Source of the DNA: Nitrospirota bacterium
GTDB lineage: Bacteria > Nitrospirota > Nitrospiria > Nitrospirales > Nitrospiraceae
Assembly: GCA_963701855.1 (NCBI GenBank)
Contig: CAVPBK010000006.1
Span: 1 to 64,000 of the forward strand
Length of the DNA stretch: 64,000 bases
Direction of reading: 5' to 3'
Numbering within the stretch: the first letter of the stretch is position 1; each line of letters opens with the position of its first letter. Of this stretch, positions 1-10,132 are shown piece after piece. A program made the position numbers and the translations under genes. Under the pieces are notes generated by a model. It worked only from the letters and a program-made list of their open reading frames with translations. It had not been told where the DNA came from and did not search any database.

Positions 1-758
1 AGAATCACTTCCCAGAGCCTTTCGCGTTGAATCGAATTCCCAGAGTGGTTCCCAGAGAGCTGCAGGAATTCGGCTCAGAACGACAAACGACAGTTGGTCA
101 CCCGGAAAATCGCGCAGTATTTCAGAAAGAGGGCGATGCCTTGTTCTCCAAACTTGGTATTTATCAGAACCTTGTGGAAGAGAATAAAAGTCTCTTGCGC
201 GAACTCCGTCTTGCATAAGCCAATGTTCATATTCGCATGCAATTTCTTGAGCAAGCCCCCGGATATCGTCATGATTCACTTTCTTGCGATAACGATAGAA
301 TTCATTCGGCTCCGCTTTTCGTCCGAGGAGTATTGATACAAGATCAGCGGATAAGGGAACTTACTGCTTCGCGATTTGAATTGACTGAGGAAATTGTCAA
401 TAAGAAAGCCTGCCACCCATGCACCTCGATTCTTCGGTGGTGCTCCTTTTCTACTCACATGAGTTCCTTCTGGCCAACCTCTTAGCCAACCACGAGCCTC
501 AATCGCTCGAACCATCCCGGGGCCTATGGCCTCTATAACAAGTTCAGCAAGCTCAGGGTTCATGTCCTGGGGATGTTGCCTCAACCATCTCCAGAGGTCT
601 CCCATTGCCGCCTGAACCTCGGGATGTTTGATACGAAACTGGGCACCGCATAGGAGAGCAGCGAAGAGCAACACTTCTGGCTCGGCCGAGGTTTCTCTTA
701 TGACATTGTCAATCCAGCGCTCCAGTTTCCTGGGGTTGGCATCAGGGAAGACTTGCAT
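1..758 (-). CDS. Hypothetical protein, frameshifted near 361, continues off the window
   Basis: ORF 276-758; adding one A near 361 continues it as SKVPLSADLVSILLGRK...HDDIRGLAQEIACEYEHW, open to position 1. Confidence 0.5.
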
Positions 759-948
759 GAGGCAGGTCTGCAGCGTCGAGGCTCTGCTTTTTGGGCTTCT
801 GATTTCGTCGAAGCCAGGGTGTTTTGGAATATTCAGGGAGCCGTCCTCTTTTTATTGAGGCTGATCCGGAAGAAGGTGATGGAAATGTGGCCTTATCTCG
901 ATTTCTGTCACTAGGAAGCATCGGAGGAATACCTATATAGATTGTTGC

Positions 949-1236
949 ATGGAGACTGAGGGTACCACCGAGCCAACGGCGAATCAACGCAAGGACCTAC
1001 GAACGCGGTGTCCATTTTGTATCGCTATGATCGATGTGAACTTGGATAAACGAGACCGCCCCTACTGGGTCTGCGTGTCATGTCAGACGCGCACCTTTGC
1101 CACACGCATCACGCTCGAGCGTTTCATGGACTGGGGCTGGATTTGGAGGGATGAGCCCCCACTTGAGGCATTGCGAGAGTGGATAGATCAAGTCGCCATT
1201 GCCGCAGGACTGAAAAAGATAAAAGGAAAAGCACTC
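949..1236 (+). CDS. Small Zn-finger protein (CPFC...CVSC); fused to the primase N-terminus in this assembly
   Basis: Two CxxC motifs; AAGGA RBS-like sequence before GTG at ~1237 suggests the primase starts separately. Confidence 0.5.
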
Positions 1237-3571
1237 GTGGCTGACTCTGTGATCACAAAAGTCTTGGCCCATCTGAGTCAGGTTAAGCAGACCGGTCATG
1301 GATGGACCGCACAATGCCCAGGCCACGACGACCGCCAGAATAGTTTGTCGATCGCCGAAGGACAGGAGGGCCGGGTCCTCCTCAAGTGTTTTGCGGGTTG
1401 TGACGTGACTCAGATCGTGACGGCTCTTGGCCTCATGATGCAGGATCTATTTCCCGATCGGAGGCAGAGAGAGGAGCAGCCCCTCTCGAACGGGTCAACC
1501 GTGCAACAGGGATGGGTTGCACCCTGATCCAGTACTCTGAGGCTAAACAACTACCGGTAGAATTCCTTCGTGGTCTTGGGCTGAGTGACATGGTCTATCA
1601 AGGTCGGCCTGCGATCCGTATTCCATATCGAAACGGGCAGGGGAAAGAGGTTGCAGTCCGCTACCGTACTGCCCTCACTAAGTCCGATCAGGGCGATCAC
1701 CGATTTCGGTGGAAACAAGGCGCAAAGCCCTGCCTTTACGGATTGTGGTGGCTTGAGCTGATTCGATCTGCTGAGTCTGTAGTCTTAGTTGAGGGTGAAT
1801 CAGACGCGCAGACCTTGTGGCTACATGGCATACGAGCGCTCGGGTTGCCGGGGGCGGCGTTGTGGCAAGAGGCATGGGCGCAACACTTTGAAGGGGTCAC
1901 CACGATCTATGTGGTGGTCGAGCCGGATACTGGTGGGCAGGCGGTGCAGAAATGGCTGAGAAGCTCGGTGATCCGTGATCGAGTGCGGCTGCTGGATTTC
2001 AAAGATTCCAAAGACCCTCTCAACTCTACCTCAGTGATCCCCTGCGATTTCTGAAACCTGGCAATCCATTCAAGCTCAGGCGGTCCCCTACCGCGAAGTC
2101 ATACAACGCGAGGTGGAGGCCGAACAACAAGAGGCTTCGGCCTGCTGTAACGCCCTCGCACAGCATCCACACCTGCTCGATGCCTTTGTCGAGACCCTTC
2201 CCCAACTTGGAGTGGCCGGCGAGGAGCGAGCTGCAAAACTCCTCTATTTGGTCCTAACAAGCCGCGTCCTGAAGAAGCCGGTCTCGGCCATCGTGAAAGG
2301 CCCATCGTCGGCAGGAAAATCCTATCTCGTGGAACGAGTCTTGGAGTTTTTCCCCCCGAGTGCGTCATACGCCCTCTCGGCCATGTCCGAACGAGCCTTG
2401 GCCTATTCCAAAGAACCGTTGGTGCATCGGGTGCTGGTCTTGTATGAAGCCACCGCGCTGCAGGGGGAGCTTGGAACCTATCTCATACGTTCCCTATTGA
2501 GTGAAGGCTGCATTCGCTATGAGACCGTCGAAAGAACCAAGAACGGCATGGAACCCCGACTCATTTTCCGTGAGGGCCCGACGGTCTCTTAGTCACAACT
2601 ACGGCGATCAAGCTCCACCCGGAAACGAAACACGAATGCTCTCTATCCCTGTCTGCGATACGACCGGCAACCCGTCACGTTCTGTTGGCTCAAGCCGAAG
2701 GAACAAACCCCTGTAGTCGATCTCATCAGCTTGGCAGGCACTGCAAACCTGGATAGCCTGCGACACACCCCCCGTCACCATTCCATATGCGAAGCGCTGG
2801 CCAAGAGCAATCCCCCCAGTAGCCGTGCGGTTACGGCGAGACTTTGGGGCACTCCTCAACCTCATTCGTGCCCATACGCTGCTCCATCGGGCAACGCGAG
2901 CCTACATGGCAGACGGGACATTGGTTGCCTCCTTCGAGGACTATGCGGTCGTGCGTGAGTTGATCGCCGATCTGGTGGCAGACGGAGTGGATTCAAGCGT
3001 GTCTCCGCAGATTCGCGAAACCGTCGAGGCCGTGCGGATTCTCCAAGGTGATAGTGGCAAAGACATTTCGCAGGCAGCGGTCGCGACTCATCTCAAGCTA
3101 GACAAAGGGGCGACTTCTCGCCGGATTCGAGCGGCCGTTGACCGTGGCTATCTGAAAAACCTTGAAGACCGGAAAGGACGTCCTGCCAGGTTACAACCGG
3201 GAGAAGCTCTCTCCCCAGACGTGGACCTATTGCCTACTCCAAAAGCCATCGAGCGAGACTGTTGCACCGTTGCGCAGCAAACCGAAAGCAATACCCTCCC
3301 TTCTGAGGCAAGGGACTTTAGTCAGCACGAGACAGACCGCAACACCGGGGACACCGAGATCATTTTCCCCGACTCTCCAGATCTGGAGTCAACCGGCTGG
3401 CCAATTGCGTTGCCAAGATTTGGACCTGGAGAGCATACCGAGTTCGAGCAATGCCATGCCTGTCCGCAAGGGACATGGCAACGATATGGCGGAGTGCCAA
3501 TCTGTAATGCATCATGCGCTCGAACACTGGGAGAAACAGGGAGGTCCAAAAACGTTGTCTACGAATTGTGA
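1237..3571 (+). CDS. Primase-helicase: CHC2-like Zn finger, Toprim, P-loop AAA+ and wHTH; split by several frameshifts
   Basis: AQCPGHDD...LKCFAGC; VLVEGESD and EPD Toprim motifs; Walker A GPSSAGKS; single-base fixes join the ORF pieces (e.g. PTGLLVTTTAIKLHPENETRML). Confidence 0.8.
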
Positions 3572-3625
3572 CGGGCTGACCGATGGTGAGGACAAGGGAA
3601 ACCACACACAAGGAGAAAACGAATC

Positions 3626-4112
3626 ATGAACGAACCACGAGACAACCACGCTCGGGCCACTCCCGACCCCCCGTTTTCCGTGGAAACAAGTGCTGTTCAC
3701 AGCCGTAGCGGTGCTCGCCGTGGTGGGGCTCATCATCCTCATACGCAAGGGCGGCGGAGCAGCCTTAGCGACAGCTGCACCCGCTGTCGCGTTGAGTATG
3801 GTCCAGGCTCACAGGAGAGGACCGAGCGCTAGGGTCGAGCCCAAAGAACCGATCGACATGGAGTTTTTGAAGGCCCAGCTGCGACAGGGCGCGAGCGAGA
3901 AGGTGGTGGCCACTCCAACCGAGTTAAAAATTGTGCTGAACGGATTTTTTGAAGAGCACAATCTGCCTCCGCCGTTCGAATCGGAGCAGCAGATGGCGAA
4001 AATTCTCGCACCGCTGGGCCTGCAGTCGAAGGTCCGATCGATGCCAGGGCGATCGGAACGGCGGTGGTATGACCTAGCCGGTATGGAGGCCCATGAAACT
4101 CCAGCGCAGTAA
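3626..4112 (+). CDS. Hypothetical protein with one TM helix (frameshift near 3689)
   Basis: AAGGAG RBS before ATG 3626; hydrophobic stretch LFTAVAVLAVVGLIILI. Confidence 0.55.
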
Positions 4113-4905
4113 GCGTCAACACGAACAAGACGCTCGACAGCGGCTGATACGAGAAGCACTGGGTTTCGTGCGATCGGGTCAGTCTGTTGCCGAAGTGGCG
4201 CAGAAGACGGGTCTGCATCGCTTGGCGATCGAGCGAGGGCTCCGAGAAGGCTTCGATCGGCAACATGTGATCCGTCAGCATCTTCAAGCACGTGCAGGAC
4301 TGACCTCCCTCTTGCGCTATCCCGATCGGGGGCCGTGGGGGCAAAGCGGCTATATGGGTAATTGTCCTGGCTTCCTGATCGTAGATCTCCTCGACTACTT
4401 TAACCCCACCTCGGTGTTCGATCCCATGGAAGGGTCTGGCACAACTGGCCAAGTCTGCGCGGATCTCAACGTGGACTATGAAGGCCGCGACTTGCGAACG
4501 GGATTTGATCTGCTGTCAGGACTACTCCCCGATCGACAGTTCGATCTGGTGTTCTGGCATCCGCCCTATTGGCCGGGATTTCGGTACAGCGAACACCCCA
4601 ATGACTTCTCCACGGCCCGGACGATCACAGACTACCTCGATCGCGTTAAGGCAGGCTTCCAGCGACTGGCTGGACTGCTCACGCCGAACGGAAAGCTGGT
4701 GATCCTGATCGGCGATGGACGGAAGAGCGGCATGTTTTACCCGATTCATAGTGACGTCATCCGCTGGGGGGTGCTGCCTCTGGAGGCGATGCTGATCAAA
4801 GAAGGTGATCATGCCCGCCGTGCCCGACATTTTCGCTATGGTCCCACCCGCTTTATTCCCACCCTGCATGAATATGTGCTGATCTTCACACGAGGTGCCG
4901 GATGA
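4093..4905 (+). CDS. N-terminal HTH fused to an amino-type (N4/N6) DNA methyltransferase
   Basis: SVAEVAQKTGL HTH; SAM motif DPMEGSGTT; catalytic motif FDLVFWHPPYW. Confidence 0.8.
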   Translation: MKLQRSKRQHEQDARQRLIREALGFVRSGQSVAEVAQKTGLHRLAIERGLREGFDRQHVIRQHLQARAGLTSLLRYPDRGPWGQSGYMGNCPGFLIVDLLDYFNPTSVFDPMEGSGTTGQVCADLNVDYEGRDLRTGFDLLSGLLPDRQFDLVFWHPPYWPGFRYSEHPNDFSTARTITDYLDRVKAGFQRLAGLLTPNGKLVILIGDGRKSGMFYPIHSDVIRWGVLPLEAMLIKEGDHARRARHFRYGPTRFIPTLHEYVLIFTRGAG

Positions 4906-5488
4906 ACGTGGCACTGTATGCCCGTGTGAGTACCGATGGGCAAGATCCGGAATTGCAGCTCTCAGCCTTACGGGCCCATGCGGCCAATCGTGGTTGGGTG
5001 ATTACCGAGGAATTCATCGATCAGGGCTATTCCGGGTCAAAAGAAACACGTCCGGCGCTGCATCGGCTCATGAAGGCGGCCTGGACCGGGGGCCTACAGG
5101 CGGTGCTCGTCTGGCGGTTCGATCGGTTTGCCCGATCGGTCAAACACTTGATCAAAGCTCTGGAGGAGTTTCGCTCTCTCAACCTCAATTTCATTTCCTT
5201 GCAGGAACAGTTTGATACCTCGACGCCGATCGGGCAGGCCATGTTCACCATCATCGGGGTCATGGCCCAGCTCGAACGGGACATCATCCGCGAACGGGTT
5301 CGTGCGGGGTTGGCCCTTGCGGAGGCTCGCGGGATAAAGCTGGACGGCCGAAAGTCCGAATGAATCAAGAAGAGTTGATGTCCCTTAAGAGCAGCGGCCT
5401 GAGTCTCCACGACATGGCTCGACAGCTCCGCTGTAGCCGATCGACGGTTCGACGCCGCTTGAAAGAGGCTCAGCATGACACAGCCTAG
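4902..5488 (+). CDS. Serine recombinase (resolvase/invertase) with C-terminal HTH; frameshift near 5342
   Basis: YARVST and DRFARS motifs; one added G gives KLGRPK...GLSLHDMARQLRCSRSTVRR ending at TAG 5486-5488. Confidence 0.9.
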
Positions 5489-5675
5489 CGTGATCGAACC
5501 GCGCTTACTCTCCCAACACGAAGCCGCCCGTTACCTTGGGATTTCGTACTGGACCGTTCGAGACCTGGTGTTTCAACGGGAGATCCCGTTTATCAAGATC
5601 AGACGGCGAATCCTGGTAGACCGCCTTGATCTCGATGCCTACCTGGACCGGTCCAAAATCCACGCAGGCGCTTGA
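5475..5675 (+). CDS. Excisionase-like HTH DNA-binding protein
   Basis: LLSQHEAARYLGISYWTVRDLV...IPFIKIRRRILV; directly upstream of the integrase. Confidence 0.85.
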   Translation: MTQPSVIEPRLLSQHEAARYLGISYWTVRDLVFQREIPFIKIRRRILVDRLDLDAYLDRSKIHAGA

Positions 5676-5716
5676 CTATTGGCCCCCTGCGGAGCGATCG
5701 ATCAGGAAAGGTGGGT

Positions 5717-6795
5717 ATGGGACGAACCTATCAGCGCGGGAACATCTGGTGGATTCAGTACTACGGACAGGGACAACTGTTCCGCGAGAGCACCCGATCC
5801 AACCTCAAGTCCGCGGCAACTTCGCTCCTCAAACTGAGAGAGGGAGAGATCGGACAGGGTCGAATTCCAGCCCTGATGGCTGAGAGAACAACCTTTGAGG
5901 AACTCGCCGCCCTGTTTCTGCAGGACTATCAGATCAATGGGCGGAAAACCCTGCAGCGTGCCCAGGAACTGACGGCGCGATTACGGAAGACGTTTGGCCG
6001 GTTCCGAGCTTGCCGCATACATCGATCACATCCGCGGCTATATCGCTCCGCCGTCAATCGGAGGGGCTAGCCAATGGCACAATCAACCGCGAACTTGCAG
6101 CCCTCAAGCGGATGTTTCGGCTTGCCAGTCAGCAAACCCCTCCGCTAGTGGTCACCACGCCGCATATTCCCCATCTCCAGGAAAACAATGTGCGCCAGGG
6201 ATTCTTTACCGAGGACGAATTCAAAGTGCTCAGAGCCATCCTCCCTGATTATGTGAAGATGCCGCTGATCATGGCCTACTGGACCGGGATGCGGGCGGGA
6301 GAAATTCTCAAGTTGAAGTGGGATCAACTTGACCTGGAACAGGGTCTGCTTCGGTTGGAACCTGGAACGACAAAAAACAATCAAGGCAGGCTTATACCGT
6401 TGGTCAAGGAATTGACCGCAGCATTGTGGCAGTGGAAACAGCGGACATTGCACCGTTATCCCTCATGTTCGTGGGTATGCCACTACCGAGGGAAGCGGCT
6501 ACTCAACATACCGACGAAATCCTGGAGGAAAGCTTGCAAGCGGGTTGGGCTTGAGGGGAAACTGTTTCATGATCTGCGCCGAACGGCTATTCGCAATATG
6601 GTGCGAGCCGGGATTAGCGAACGAGTCGCGATGGTGATTTCTGGGCACAAGACAAGATCAGTATTCGATCGATACAATATTGTATGTAGTGCTGATCTAA
6701 TCGAAGCAAGGCAAAGAATTGAAAAGAGAGCTACGAATGGCTTTACTGAAAATGCTTCAGGAGAAGCTCTTGTACAAATGCCAACACGCTGTTAA
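5717..6795 (+). CDS. Tyrosine integrase, frameshifted at ~6015-6050
   Basis: Arm-binding-like N-terminus RGNIWWIQYY; TINRELAALKRMF; TGMRAGE, TKN, HDLRRT, SGHKT, RYNI catalytic motifs. Confidence 0.92.
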
Positions 6796-7399
6796 CGGAT
6801 GCCCGGTCAATCTTATCCCAATTGGCATGTAAAGCGTGATTCCTAAAACTCAGGTAACTGATCGCTATTCCAAGTTGAGGCGCAACAAGAATTCCTTTCG
6901 TTTTCAAAACATCGATAACATGGCTTAAATCGTCTTTCCCCATTATGCCAGCAAAACTCGTCCCCATTCTGCGAATAGTATCCTCGTATGCCGCAGCGGC
7001 AAGGACAGCAGCAACGTTCTTTGCGCTGTCTCCTGATTCATCAAGAACGATACGCGCAAGTTGAACCAAGTCAGTCAGAACCTCGCTTGTCAGCCGCCGT
7101 TGCAGACTACCAGTAAGACCTGAATCTAATTCCTGCTTGAGATTCCGAAGTGCTCCTCGTACAGCATGAATAAGCGTACCCATATTGTGCTGATAATTAT
7201 AAAGCTTGCTGTTTCGCAGTTCGTTGGCGACATCCTGCAGCGTTCTTGCTTGAGGGCTGTCTGGCCCATAGACGGCGGATAAAAGGGTTAGTGCCCCGCT
7301 GAACATTTGACTAGATACAGCGACCGCATCTGCTCGTGAACCTTGCTCACCGAGGGCGAGTAACGCTTCGATCCGGTCCTTTAAGGTCTGTAAATCCAT
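6743..7399 (-). CDS. HEPN-domain (DUF4145-like) protein
   Basis: AAVLAAAAYED helix and RNHALH (RxxxxH) motif; ATG 7399 chosen because the longer ORF overlaps the tRNA. Confidence 0.75.
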   Translation of the reverse strand: MDLQTLKDRIEALLALGEQGSRADAVAVSSQMFSGALTLLSAVYGPDSPQARTLQDVANELRNSKLYNYQHNMGTLIHAVRGALRNLKQELDSGLTGSLQRRLTSEVLTDLVQLARIVLDESGDSAKNVAAVLAAAAYEDTIRRMGTSFAGIMGKDDLSHVIDVLKTKGILVAPQLGIAISYLSFRNHALHANWDKIDRASVNSVLAFVQELLLKHFQ

Positions 7400-7417
7400 G
7401 AGTGTCTTCGTAACCTT

Positions 7418-7436
7418 GAGCACACTTTCGAGCACA
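7418..7436 (+). repeat. GAGCACA direct repeat with 12-bp period; putative integrase arm site
   Basis: GAGCACA-ctttc-GAGCACA about 50 bp from the tRNA 3' end; similar pair at 9167-9185. Confidence 0.55.
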
Positions 7437-7483
7437 GTACGGATACCAGAGGCAATGAGAAGCAAGCTAACTAATTGAATAAT

Positions 7484-7560
7484 TGGTGCCCCCGATACGA
7501 ATTGAACGTACGACAAACGGTTTAGGAAACCGCTGCTCTATCCAACTGAGCTACGGGGGC
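7484..7560 (-). tRNA. tRNA-Arg(CCT)
   Basis: GCCCCCGTAGCTCAGTTGGATAGAGCAGCGGTTTCCTAAACCGTTTGTCGTACGTTCAATTCGTATCGGGGGCACCA folds as a full cloverleaf with encoded CCA; anticodon at 7524-7526. Confidence 0.95.
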
Positions 7561-7635
7561 GTGGCGTGAATTTAGCGCACTTAGGGGTGGATTGGAAGCG
7601 GAGATTGAGGGCCCTGTGCCCATATCATCCCTATG

Positions 7636-7716
7636 AAGCTCGCGGTCGGCGCTATGACGGAAATCGTACCGGATGATCCCCGTCAAGCCAGCGTTCGAAC
7701 ATGCGATTCGCCAAGA
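7636..7716 (-). pseudogene. Tyrosine integrase C-terminal remnant
   Basis: SWRIACSNAGLTGIIRYDFRHSADREL aligns with SWRKACKRVGLEGKLFHDLRRTAIRNM of the neighbouring integrase. Confidence 0.7.
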
Positions 7717-7747
7717 GGCCGATTCTGTCATCGCCTTAGCCGGGACG

Positions 7748-8968
7748 TTAATTATTCACGGAAAGATACATTGTGACCCGCCCACTCTTCTTCACGTCAA
7801 TGAAATACACCCTGATCGCCGAATTCGCTCCTGGCTTAGTTGCCATGAATTTGTCTGTCTTGGTGTACAACTCTGTGTCAGAATCCTGATCGAGATCCGT
7901 TCCTGTCCAACCATCAGGCAGGCTGTTGCGCAACCGCTTCATGATATCCTTCACCGCTTCGTCGGCTTCAGACCTGTCGGAAAACTTGAATGTGCAGTTC
8001 CACCTGGCTCCATCAGAATCGTCTTTGTCTCTCACCAGACATTGCTTGGCACCGGCAAAGGCAACTTTCGACCGCCATGTTGTCCCGGTAGTATCCACAA
8101 CTTTATGTCCAGTGCGTAACGTTTTGAAGTCTCCGGGGGATGCCGTGAGAACGGCTTGAATCACTTCACGGTCGTCTTTCCCAGCGACGCTATCCCCCAC
8201 TTGATGGTTGTCGGACGGACAACCCTGCCCGGTGCAGGTAATCCGGTACATCGTCTGGTTCCACTTCATCTTTGAGAGAAATCTCTTGAAACTGACTTCA
8301 TATTGACCATCATTTTCTCCTGACATATCCATGTTTGGTTGATAGGGGTTCCCGATCCAGAGGAAGCGATCGTCTTCGAAGGGGAACGGATCATTCACGG
8401 TCAGCATCAGGTTTCCGGAGCGATCGTCGTAGCCCACGATGAGAGCCATATGTTGAGAGATGCCATTTACCTTGAATCCAGACGGGGAAACTCCAACAAT
8501 AATTGGGTGGCCTTCATTGAGCTCTTTTTTTACCTCTTCTTCGGAAAGGCTGCCGGCCTTCAATTGGACTGTCAGCGTGATATCTCCGGCCGCACCACCC
8601 CGTGTAGCCATTACAGGATACTGTTGAAGCATGCTCACCACGGTGGCTTCATTGCCAGCCGGGAGATCGCATTCAACGCAATTCGGCATCCCTGTGCAAA
8701 GGTTTCTACCCTGCACGACTCCACACTGATAGTCTGTCCGATGAGCAGCTGGCACGTAATAGTATTTGAAGACCATCTCCCCAACGGCTGCCCAACACCA
8801 ACTAGGGCGTTCCTGAAACACCGGAGAAATATGTAATTTAACCTCCGCTGCCATGGCCGGAATGACTGGCGCCAAGAGAACAAGCAACAGCCCGACTCCG
8901 AATGCCGTCAGTCTGTTTATCACTGCTTTCCTCTCCCCCACCCTTGATATCTCTCGATCAAGTTTCAA
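7748..8968 (-). CDS. Secreted papain-fold (C39-like) cysteine protease with extra C-terminal domain
   Basis: Signal peptide; QERPSWCWAA, QHMALIVGYD and VNDP give a Cys-His-Asp triad. Confidence 0.75.
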   Translation of the reverse strand: MKLDREISRVGERKAVINRLTAFGVGLLLVLLAPVIPAMAAEVKLHISPVFQERPSWCWAAVGEMVFKYYYVPAAHRTDYQCGVVQGRNLCTGMPNCVECDLPAGNEATVVSMLQQYPVMATRGGAAGDITLTVQLKAGSLSEEEVKKELNEGHPIIVGVSPSGFKVNGISQHMALIVGYDDRSGNLMLTVNDPFPFEDDRFLWIGNPYQPNMDMSGENDGQYEVSFKRFLSKMKWNQTMYRITCTGQGCPSDNHQVGDSVAGKDDREVIQAVLTASPGDFKTLRTGHKVVDTTGTTWRSKVAFAGAKQCLVRDKDDSDGARWNCTFKFSDRSEADEAVKDIMKRLRNSLPDGWTGTDLDQDSDTELYTKTDKFMATKPGANSAIRVYFIDVKKSGRVTMYLSVNN

Positions 8969-9287
8969 GCTCCCTCCTCAAAAAACTCATTGACCAAGTC
9001 TCCTTATAAAAGCGTCGTCCCCTTCAACATTCGATACCCCATCCACGTTATATGTTATATGGGAGAAGGGCATTGCTTCAATAGATATGGGTCCGCGTGG
9101 GTGGGCGTTGATCGCTCATGGACATCCCCTGAACTGTGCGACCAACGCCAAAAAGCCTCTTCTGGGTGTGCCCTTCTCTGTGTCCGTGAGGGGGCTTTAT
9201 ACCAACACCCACCACCCCCGTCATCCAACGAGATAACAAAAAACCCCTTGTAACCAGTGATGATCACAAGAGGCCTCTATTCTAAGC

Positions 9288-9329
9288 CAGTTTAGAAAAC
9301 CACTGCTCTATCTAATTGAGCTACGGGGC
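9288..9329 (-). pseudogene. Decayed 5' half of tRNA-Arg (att remnant)
   Basis: GCCCCGTAGCTCAATTAGATAGAGCAGTGGTTTTCTAAACTG; differs from the intact 5' half by transitions and one missing C; no T-arm follows. Confidence 0.85.
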
Positions 9330-9335
9330 ATGAAG

Positions 9336-9842
9336 TTAGCCATACCACCGATCGTCTTGTTTGCCGATTGACGTGGTGGCGGAGTCGTCGTAGGAAAGCG
9401 GTGCCGAGGCAAGCACCTCGTGAACCAACTGCATCAAGGCCTCAACGGAGAAGGGCTTCTGGAGAAAGGGCACGTGATCGATGACAGTTTGATACGCCTT
9501 GCGATCATGGTATGAGAAGCTCGACATTAAGATCACTCGAAACGACTTCTTCATGGCCAGGGCGCGTTGGATGATGTCCTGACCATGGACCCGTGGGTAC
9601 GGATTTTTTGTGGCGGCAAATTGAAAGCCCGGCGGAGGCAACATGAGATCGGTCAACAAAAGATCGATTGGCTCTTGGTGGGTGGACAAGATCTGTAACG
9701 CCTCCGGACTGCCTTCTGCTTCAAGGACAGTAAACCCTTCGGCACGGAGCGTCTTCACGCAGATCAACATCGTTGATGGGTCATCGTCGACGACCAAGAT
9801 CGTTTTTGCGAGGGATGAGCGCATAGGTACGGGGGTGTCCAT
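9336..9842 (-). CDS. Single-domain response regulator (receiver)
   Basis: ILVVDDD, DLLLTDLMLP and FLQKPF motifs. Confidence 0.9.
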   Translation of the reverse strand: MDTPVPMRSSLAKTILVVDDDPSTMLICVKTLRAEGFTVLEAEGSPEALQILSTHQEPIDLLLTDLMLPPPGFQFAATKNPYPRVHGQDIIQRALAMKKSFRVILMSSFSYHDRKAYQTVIDHVPFLQKPFSVEALMQLVHEVLASAPLSYDDSATTSIGKQDDRWYG

Positions 9843-10132
9843 TAAGACCTCCGGGCTCGGACAGATACTGGACTGTCTGAGCCGACCGTCATGTCCATAT
9901 GTAGACGATGCTCTGCGTCTGTATCGGTCTGAGCCTTAGAAACTTAAATGAGGAGATTTAGCAGGATGTTCTCTCTTAGCTGTTAGAGAGCAGGGACAGG
10001 CTTCTGGTGATACCTAATAAATAGGTGGGCCGGTGAGGCGTACTTCAGTTTCCTGGCTCCAGACAATGTGGCGCGTGACAATCAATCGGAATGGCTACAT
10101 CGAAGTGAGAGGGCTAGACCAACCGGGTCTGG

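Follow-up and report, generated by a model that had tools for sequence, protein, structure and literature searches.

A Nitrospira tRNA-Arg(CCT) gene probably replaced from both ends by integrative elements of opposite polarity

The tRNA-Arg(CCT) gene considered here lies on the minus strand at positions 7484-7560 of a 64-kb stretch of DNA (the window) from a Nitrospirota bacterium; the window is the start of contig C6 of the source genome (G000, a draft of 4.3 Mb in 15 contigs with 45 tRNA genes), and window position 1 is the contig end. It is proposed that this gene was, in all probability, hit by two elements of opposite polarity at the same anticodon-loop core, one on its 5' side (island 2) and one on its 3' side (island 1). 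The anticodon loop occupies positions 33-39 of the 77-nucleotide (nt) tRNA, and the limits of the identity blocks support a likely derivation of positions 1 to ~41 from island 2 and of positions 33-77 from island 1. The promoter and both parts of the gene would then be element-derived, and the comparisons support a chimerism of DNA descent, not of sequence, because the tRNA is the same in G000 and in the relative G009, where no island lies downstream. ARAGORN detects a single tRNA in the whole window, and Rfam model RF00005 scores it at 65.2 bits (gathering threshold 29) with no non-standard pairs flagged, in agreement with the intact gene described in an earlier reading made from the letters of the window alone (the sequence-only reading). 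It is the single Arg(CCT) gene of G000. For the comparisons below 41 genomes were searched, G000 counted among them, and contigs from four soil studies were also compared.

The 5' side of the gene

Upstream of the gene, at 9290-9328 on the minus strand, lies a displaced and decayed 5' half of tRNA-Arg(CCT), a direct repeat of 7520-7558 (35/39 identical; E=2.4e-8 against the whole genome). It spans tRNA positions ~3-41, and its homology to the gene is gone by positions 43-44, just beyond the anticodon loop, where the sequence-only reading had also placed the end of such a half. Its immediate neighbour is a response-regulator gene (9336-9842, minus strand; PF00072), a conserved chromosomal gene by synteny. 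The order orf11513, DUF4340 gene, (response regulator), promoter B, tRNA is kept in the genus and in one genome of another family. Promoter B is the type-B upstream sequence, TAGACT/TGGACT, 17 nt, TATCGT, and is common to the other-family genome. Among the 18 genus loci with a full tRNA-Arg(CCT), five have type B, 11 have a different upstream block (type A, the one present in G000) and two have something else. Empty sites with type B occur in G021, G017, G016, G013, G008, G011:C48 and G029, and in G021 and G017 type B follows the response regulator by ~130 nt, the exact spot occupied by the decayed 5' half in G000, G015 and G009. In these last three genomes the 5' half sits beside its response regulator/DUF4340 neighbour and is followed by element DNA, and in G009 a decayed promoter B (its -10 region) remains in front of the displaced copy. 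Because the 5' copy stands at the ancestral tRNA spot behind promoter B, we take the 9290 copy to be the native 5' half, and the working promoter and 5' part to be imported. The response-regulator stop lies 6 nt from the displaced half in G000 and G015, and the native promoter B must therefore have been deleted in G000. The same island-2 arrangement is found in independent assemblies, namely G015, G009 and contigs from the four soil studies.

The working gene is preceded by the type-A block (7561-7621, minus strand), with TAAATT at 7569-7574, a TAAGTG box, TTCCAA at 7592-7597 and GGGCACA at 7615-7621. The 60 nt on the 5' side of the gene align with the integrase-proximal block of the element attachment site (attP) in a family of integrative elements here called alpha. 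The alpha block reads GGGCACA direct repeats, TTGACA, 17 nt including the TAAGTG box, GATATT/TAATTT, 7-8 nt, and then tRNA +1; the hexamers of G000 at the -35 and -10 equivalents are TTCCAA and TAAATT. From this likeness to TTGACA-17-GATATT, an element promoter is predicted to drive the restored tRNA-Arg(CCT). The type-A block is kept in all 11 of the type-A loci among the 18, and in G018, G024 and G002 the peptidase gene described below ends ~41 nt from the tRNA, overlapping the block.

Island 2 itself is confirmed, as far as sequence comparison goes, as a 1.7-kb relic of a 5'-replacing ("reversed") integrative element. Beside the type-A block lies an integrase remnant of ~31 codons around the HxLR box (~7630-7722, minus strand), which points toward the tRNA 5' end and lacks N- and C-terminal parts. 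The translation of 7522-7731 (minus strand) matches the island-1 integrase at 13/31 positions over this span (E=9e-7), bearing out the minus-strand remnant noticed near 7636-7716 in the sequence-only reading. The orthologous remnant in G015 matches best the integrase of an alpha element on contig C11 of G000 (E=1e-11), ahead of the island-1 integrase (2e-7) and of a further integrase lineage, beta (9e-5). The features of a reversed element are present: a displaced direct 5' fragment ending at the crossover region (9290-9328), and an integrase inside the element, a remnant here and, in related elements, intact (G011:C50) or frameshifted (C11).

The rest of the relic is a 406-amino-acid (aa) C39-like/papain-like peptidase gene (7748-8968, minus strand; PF13529, E=9e-6; PF12385, E=1e-5) and a terminator-like hairpin at its left end, directly after the displaced 5' half (9233-9278, minus strand; 18 pairs and a T-run). 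The ~405-aa peptidase frame stays open 5' of the tRNA in eight relatives' genomes at 74-93% aa identity, and no such gene turned up at this locus in the type-B genomes that were examined. That the frame has remained open while the adjoining integrase decayed suggests that the peptidase is retained cargo. Homologous hairpins follow the displaced 5' copies in G015, G009 and G002 and at tRNA-Thr(TGT) on C11, and the hairpin together with ~80 nt after it is homologous to the DNA after the 5' copies in G002 and C11; terminator function is predicted from its form.

Living relatives of island 2 are found in the alpha family. The alpha element on C11 is 14.5 kb long and lies at tRNA-Thr(TGT) together with a 5' copy (positions 1-40) that is 100% identical to the gene. 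Its products include a DUF3854/AAA_25 protein, a small terminase and an integrase-GerE fusion, and its frameshifted integrase (a piece scoring 55 bits with PF00589) ends 12 nt before the tRNA. The corresponding empty site, native upstream flank followed by a complete tRNA-Thr(TGT), is present at 10/14 relatives' loci, with G015 96% identical over 264 nt. Island 2 is homologous to the C11 element in two places, at its left end and in the tRNA-proximal block with GGGCACA repeat, promoter and TAAGTG box. In G002 a 100%-identical 5' copy (positions 1-43) stands behind the peptidase gene and the type-A block, and therefore represents a second insertion at tRNA-Arg(CCT). Alpha homologues at 30 loci comprise 10 reversed and seven canonical cases, 12 without a nearby tRNA and one at a contig end. 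Contigs from the soil runs X1 and X4 join the intact tRNA 5' part (7519-7560) to an alpha-type left end (9256-9274) with 15-35 letters between them; these junctions resemble the fresh G002 insertion, and soil populations appear to harbour alpha elements at tRNA-Arg(CCT) at present.

The 3' side of the gene

On its other side the gene adjoins island 1 (1-7483), which runs off the contig start and is identified by Pfam matches, by a paralogue elsewhere on C6 and by a flank found on another contig as the tRNA-proximal member of an array of canonical, 3'-replacing islands. Its tyrosine integrase (5717-6795, plus strand; PF00589) points toward the tRNA 3' end. The sequence-only reading was right about this orientation and about the family, the piece at 6010-6795 matching PF00589 at E=3.5e-22 (79.4 bits, cutoff 27.1). 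The gene is broken, however: it occupies two frames (5717-6070 and 6010-6795), with a net loss of 1 nt at ~6019-6047 relative to an intact 350-aa paralogue at C6:417466-418515 (822/1041 nt identical), and is a frameshifted pseudogene as assembled. Neither the island-1 integrase nor the ~31-codon stub of island 2 keeps an uninterrupted frame. The expectation that the two integrases facing the gene from opposite sides would be related agrees with the alpha comparison, which gives 44% identity over 155 aa between the island-1 and alpha integrases, and with the GRGCACA repeats adjoining the tRNA part in both elements. In island 1 these are two direct GAGCACA repeats beside the tRNA 3' part (7418-7437, plus strand), read from the sequence, which resemble the GGGCACA repeats of alpha and may be arm-type integrase sites.

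Pfam further identifies in island 1 genes for a CHC2 zinc-finger protein (949-1527), a DNA methylase (4093-4905) and a resolvase (4902-5363). Between integrase and tRNA lies an open reading frame of 219-257 aa (6743-7400/7516, minus strand) with a weak DUF4145 match (E=0.0011) below the Pfam cutoff; its listed TTG start at 7516 overlaps the tRNA 3' end, and the ATG at 7400 is the more likely start. Over window positions 3342-6683 island 1 has a counterpart of 82-85% identity in the tRNA-Thr(CGT) island array (C6:415586-418436), an element from which the resolvase is missing. The paralogous region as a whole (C6:415586-419117) carries an intact integrase with 80-87% aa identity to that of island 1. 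Near-identical integrases thus stand at two tRNAs, tRNA-Arg(CCT) and tRNA-Thr(CGT), whose genes are 85% alike over positions 6-77.

An island that supplies the 3' part should have left a displaced native one. The sequence-only reading advised looking for it to the left of the window; no second copy was found inside the 64-kb window, which starts at a contig end, and the search of the whole genome located it on C5. Three copies of positions 33-77, starting at the first anticodon-loop base, occur in G000: C12:100021-100065 (100% identical), C12:24891-24935 (96%) and C5:91532-91576 (96%). The flank that directly follows the tRNA in G009, G012 and G018 maps to C5:91577 onward, the G009 alignment extending to the first base after the C5 copy (those of G017 and G021 end ~80 nt short of the tRNA). 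Since the conserved downstream flank adjoins it, the copy at C5:91532-91576 is, to judge from this alignment, the native 3' part, probably moved to its present place by an array of islands extending across contig breaks, and the origin of the present 3' half in island 1, as first suggested, gains support. The pattern is that of a canonical island: the block of identity begins in the anticodon loop and extends to the 3' end, and a displaced copy stands beside native flank, its continuity with island 1 interrupted by the contig break.

Contigs of one soil run join the tRNA 3' end, a loose end at 7483, straight to the native C5 flank in a by-eye comparison. Over island 1 (5500-7410) the four soil runs gave no contigs except one small piece in run X2, and contigs cannot show absence. 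Two of the three 3' copies share a ~200-nt element-side arm (alignment score 130, shuffle mean 17). This arm recurs beside the 3' parts of different tRNAs, at C12:100066-100260, C5:91335-91531, C6:419118-419271, C6:613025-613218 and C6:1036545-1036694, and from this recurrence is taken as the common end of a canonical element family. A by-eye likeness between the DNA downstream of the 9290 copy and the reverse complement of the canonical P arm was rejected (score 16-18, shuffle mean 16).

Proposed history and its alternatives

The repeat boundaries, the homologies, the synteny, the empty sites and both displaced halves are read directly from the sequences, and from them we infer the following order of events. 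An alpha element would have integrated into tRNA-Arg(CCT) through an attP made of GGGCACA repeats, its own promoter and tRNA positions 1 to ~41, beside the 3' end of its integrase gene. Native promoter and native 5' half (now 9290-9328) would thereby have been displaced and capped by the element hairpin, while the element promoter and 5' part came to stand before the native 3' part. The element would then have decayed to 1.7 kb, leaving the integrase stub, the kept peptidase gene and the promoter. Later, canonical elements, whose attP carries tRNA positions 33-77 and whose integrase points toward the tRNA 3' end, would have integrated at the same core, strand exchange presumably falling within the 7-nt loop each time. 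As the island array built up, the native 3' part would have moved to what is now C5:91532-91576, with island 1 giving the present 3' part. The proposal that 5' half and promoter come from island 2, already made in the sequence-only reading, agrees with the promoter-B order of the relatives, the displaced native 5' half and the alpha attP homology.

Several points weigh against this history or lend it no support. The island-2 integrase remnant amounts to only 31-56 residues. The tRNA sequence carries no mark of replacement, being identical in G009; a comparison with island-free relatives, recommended at the outset, was informative through synteny, which shows the native promoter-B order, and not through the tRNA itself. 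The G-U pairs at the ends of the anticodon and T stems and the T-loop TTCAATT, once read as signs of mosaic origin, do not serve as such: other families of the order also have G28-U44 and this T-loop, and the G-U pair of the T stem falls wholly within the 3' part. A simple sigma-70 scan calls neither the type-A promoter of G000 nor type B, and the type-A miss counts against the predicted element promoter. In the RNA runs almost none of the stretch was represented. The contig break at window position 1 blocks a physical link from island 1 to any of the three 3' copies, and no contig-end overlaps linking the window start to other contigs were found when looked for. Type A is not clustered on a tree of two flanking genes (four changes, at least two of them forced, shuffle mean 4.6), and a single ancient insertion is therefore not shown; repeated gains, recombinational exchange or poor tree resolution could each account for the scatter. 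Most of the relatives, moreover, are metagenome-assembled genomes, with contamination of 7% in G011.

The 9290 copy might instead be a stump, left by deletion of the 3' half from another tRNA gene (a tandem duplicate or a tRNA-Arg(TCT)), in which case the peptidase gene and the upstream block would be ordinary chromosome. All four differences of the copy are transitions, one of which changes its anticodon to TCT, and no intact island-2 integrase is left in the window, both of which would suit such a stump. The orthologue in G015, however, still reads CCT, and the 5' half of the actual tRNA-Arg(TCT) gene (C3:164058) is clearly different, so that the TCT origin entertained in the sequence-only reading falls away. 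Moreover, the copy sits at the exact place of the single tRNA in ancestral-type relatives, behind promoter B; its homology stops at the anticodon stem-loop, a limit that four other 5' copies in G000 share; and the DNA that follows it is a shared element end. We regard a separate-tRNA stump as highly improbable. Much the same low standing, if marginally higher, is given to a normal canonical integration followed by inversion or rearrangement between opposed attachment sites, which would mimic 5' replacement. Related attachment-site copies and element ends are abundant in G000, and archaeal integrase-driven inversions are described in PMC8371274. Yet exchange at tRNA-type attachment sites unites a 5' half with a 3' part every time and never with non-tRNA DNA, recent elements with the same ends show clean insertions and empty sites, and intact integrases lie 12-58 nt upstream of full tRNAs at 51 of 80 loci from public genomes (below). 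An assembly artefact, a chimeric join through repeated tRNA sequence, could be imagined in a 15-contig draft in which tRNA parts are repeated, but it is hardly credible: the same order and junctions appear in the assemblies of two other species, G015 and G009, the soil contigs from four studies cover 7558-9900, and the decayed copy differs at 4/39 positions and so is not a collapsed repeat. Integration from both sides thus remains our preferred reading.

Reversed integration in the genome and the genus

The 5' replacement at tRNA-Arg(CCT) is one of several in G000. Displaced 5' copies (positions 1-39/41), each with a same-strand integrase or its fragments directly upstream of the tRNA, accompany 5/45 tRNA genes, the copies ending at positions 39-41: Arg-CCT, Arg-TCT (C3:155770-164134), Arg-ACG (C14:109746-110947 and C10:10229-10267), Thr-TGT (C11:258524-273153) and Ser-TGA (C9:482153-490020). 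The four further copies are 92-100% identical to their genes; three of the elements measure 8.2, 14.5 and 7.7 kb, and the fourth is divided between two contigs. Many other tRNAs of G000 have canonical 3' copies, starting at positions 29-33.

Beta, the second lineage of reversed integrases, has an intact 374-aa member in G011:C50, which follows Rep_trans, RadC and an excisionase-like HTH_17 gene and stops 16 nt short of a full tRNA-Arg(CCT); the corresponding 5' half, displaced, stands behind promoter B on a separate contig of the same genome. Beta homologues at 30 genus loci comprise 21 reversed, six canonical and three unclassifiable cases. Among 80 loci from species-representative public genomes (GTDB) they comprise 51 reversed and 10 canonical cases, 13 without a nearby tRNA and six at contig ends, the 51 being those with integrases 12-58 nt upstream of the tRNA. 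Of the 61 loci that could be classified, 52 entered a quick maximum-likelihood tree; partial integrases (L165, L166, L168, L171) were omitted, and L150, L154, L158, L162 and L163 were removed by a 230-aa filter. The tree places the 40 reversed Nitrospira rows in one clade (Shimodaira-Hasegawa-like approximate likelihood ratio test, 99) with five canonical rows basal. Polarity labels need two changes on this tree, against a mean of 8.6 when shuffled, and 0/500 shuffles gave as few.

How close the two polarities can lie is seen at tRNA-Arg(CCT) itself. The integrases of L050 (G011:C50, 2921-4137) and L052 (G016:C128, 1092-2291) are 73% identical over residues 118-362 and use this same tRNA with opposite polarity; the stop codon of the canonical G016 gene lies 8 nt short of the tRNA 3' end, and DNA homology between the two loci stops ~50 nt before the tRNA. 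It appears somewhat more probable than not that 5' replacement in Nitrospira is an inherited, dominant mode of at least two integrase lineages, each arising by a rare flip of attP polarity from canonical ancestors. Under the same proposal, integrases up to 73% identical would use one tRNA-Arg(CCT) core in opposite directions, element promoters would permanently have taken over single-copy tRNA genes in many species, and tRNA genes would be replaceable piecewise until no native DNA is left.

Reversed-orientation integrative elements that replace the 5' part of tRNA genes were reportedly described by Zhao and Williams (2002, J Bacteriol 184:859), and canonical anticodon-loop tRNA islands and their tandem arrays reportedly by Williams (2002). 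The 2002 report on reversed elements and archaeal cases of 5' replacement are cited in PMC6563490. The present relic resembles such elements in that a tyrosine-integrase element swaps the tRNA 5' part, leaves the displaced fragment upstream in direct orientation and makes the restored gene depend, as predicted here, on an element promoter. It differs from a single odd reversed element, since at least two lineages (alpha and beta) are involved and 5/45 tRNA genes of one genome are affected, and from the reported reversed elements in that the relic is fixed and decayed and the same gene was also hit from the 3' side. According to PMC8371274, the original promoter is retained in bacterial recombinant tRNA genes with very few exceptions. 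The same paper describes, after Cossu et al. (2017), pTN3-like integrases of Thermococcales whose chromosomal attachment site (attB) is the tRNA 5' half. The Nitrospira elements share this site with pTN3, whose recombinant tRNA is expressed from the element side, as is predicted here. The archaeal enzyme, however, is 'suicidal', its gene being split by integration, whereas the Nitrospira frame ends 12-58 nt before the tRNA and stays whole on integration (374 aa in G011:C50), the attP not lying inside the integrase gene.

Island 1 and the 33-77 copies fit the canonical islands of Islander as outlined in PMC4383910, with a block from the anticodon loop to the 3' end, an integrase beside the restored gene and several fragments forming an array. 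Island 1 is unusual among these merely in its broken integrase and in its close paralogue (80-87% aa identity) in the tRNA-Thr(CGT) array. The configuration filter of Islander, as described there, permits a 5' fragment upstream of the gene. Replacement of the 5' part is thus of a known kind, rare in bacteria, and is common and clade-specific in Nitrospira; no description of 5'-replacing integrases in Nitrospira was found in the partial literature searched. What is new is a doubly replaced tRNA gene with both native halves traced, a predicted element promoter fixed in many species, and the abundance and clade structure of the reversed integrases.

Here every part of a working tRNA gene has been traced: its two halves and its promoter would be element DNA, and the native halves can still be identified. 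The case also shows an integration mode regarded as rare in bacteria to be common in an environmentally important genus of nitrite oxidisers. Closely related integrases of opposite polarity at one target are a natural system for asking what sets the direction of integration. For annotation, island finders and promoter predictions built on 3' replacement will set the borders of islands and the promoters of tRNAs wrongly in such Nitrospira loci.

Some further observations concern the same genes. In L050 (G011:C50, 4061-4320) the tRNA-Arg(CCT) is flanked on both sides, by the intact beta integrase upstream and by a canonical arm (starting ATTTTACAACAGCTTGCAGG) downstream, a second and fresher gene hit from both ends. 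A remnant of a canonical, G016-type integrase lies in G000 at C12:24727-24867, adjoining one of the 3' copies. In L043 (G012:C37) a 5'-half-like fragment with anticodon CGT (8787-8822) stands 13.6 kb from tRNA-Thr(CGT) and may mark another 5'-replacing insertion at a further tRNA. At C3:150835-155810 of G000, tRNA-Pro(TGG) carries a canonical 4.7-kb island that ends at a 3' copy (155629-155675), and the displaced 5' half of tRNA-Arg(TCT) lies ~95 nt past that copy, so that neighbouring tRNAs were hit from opposite sides.

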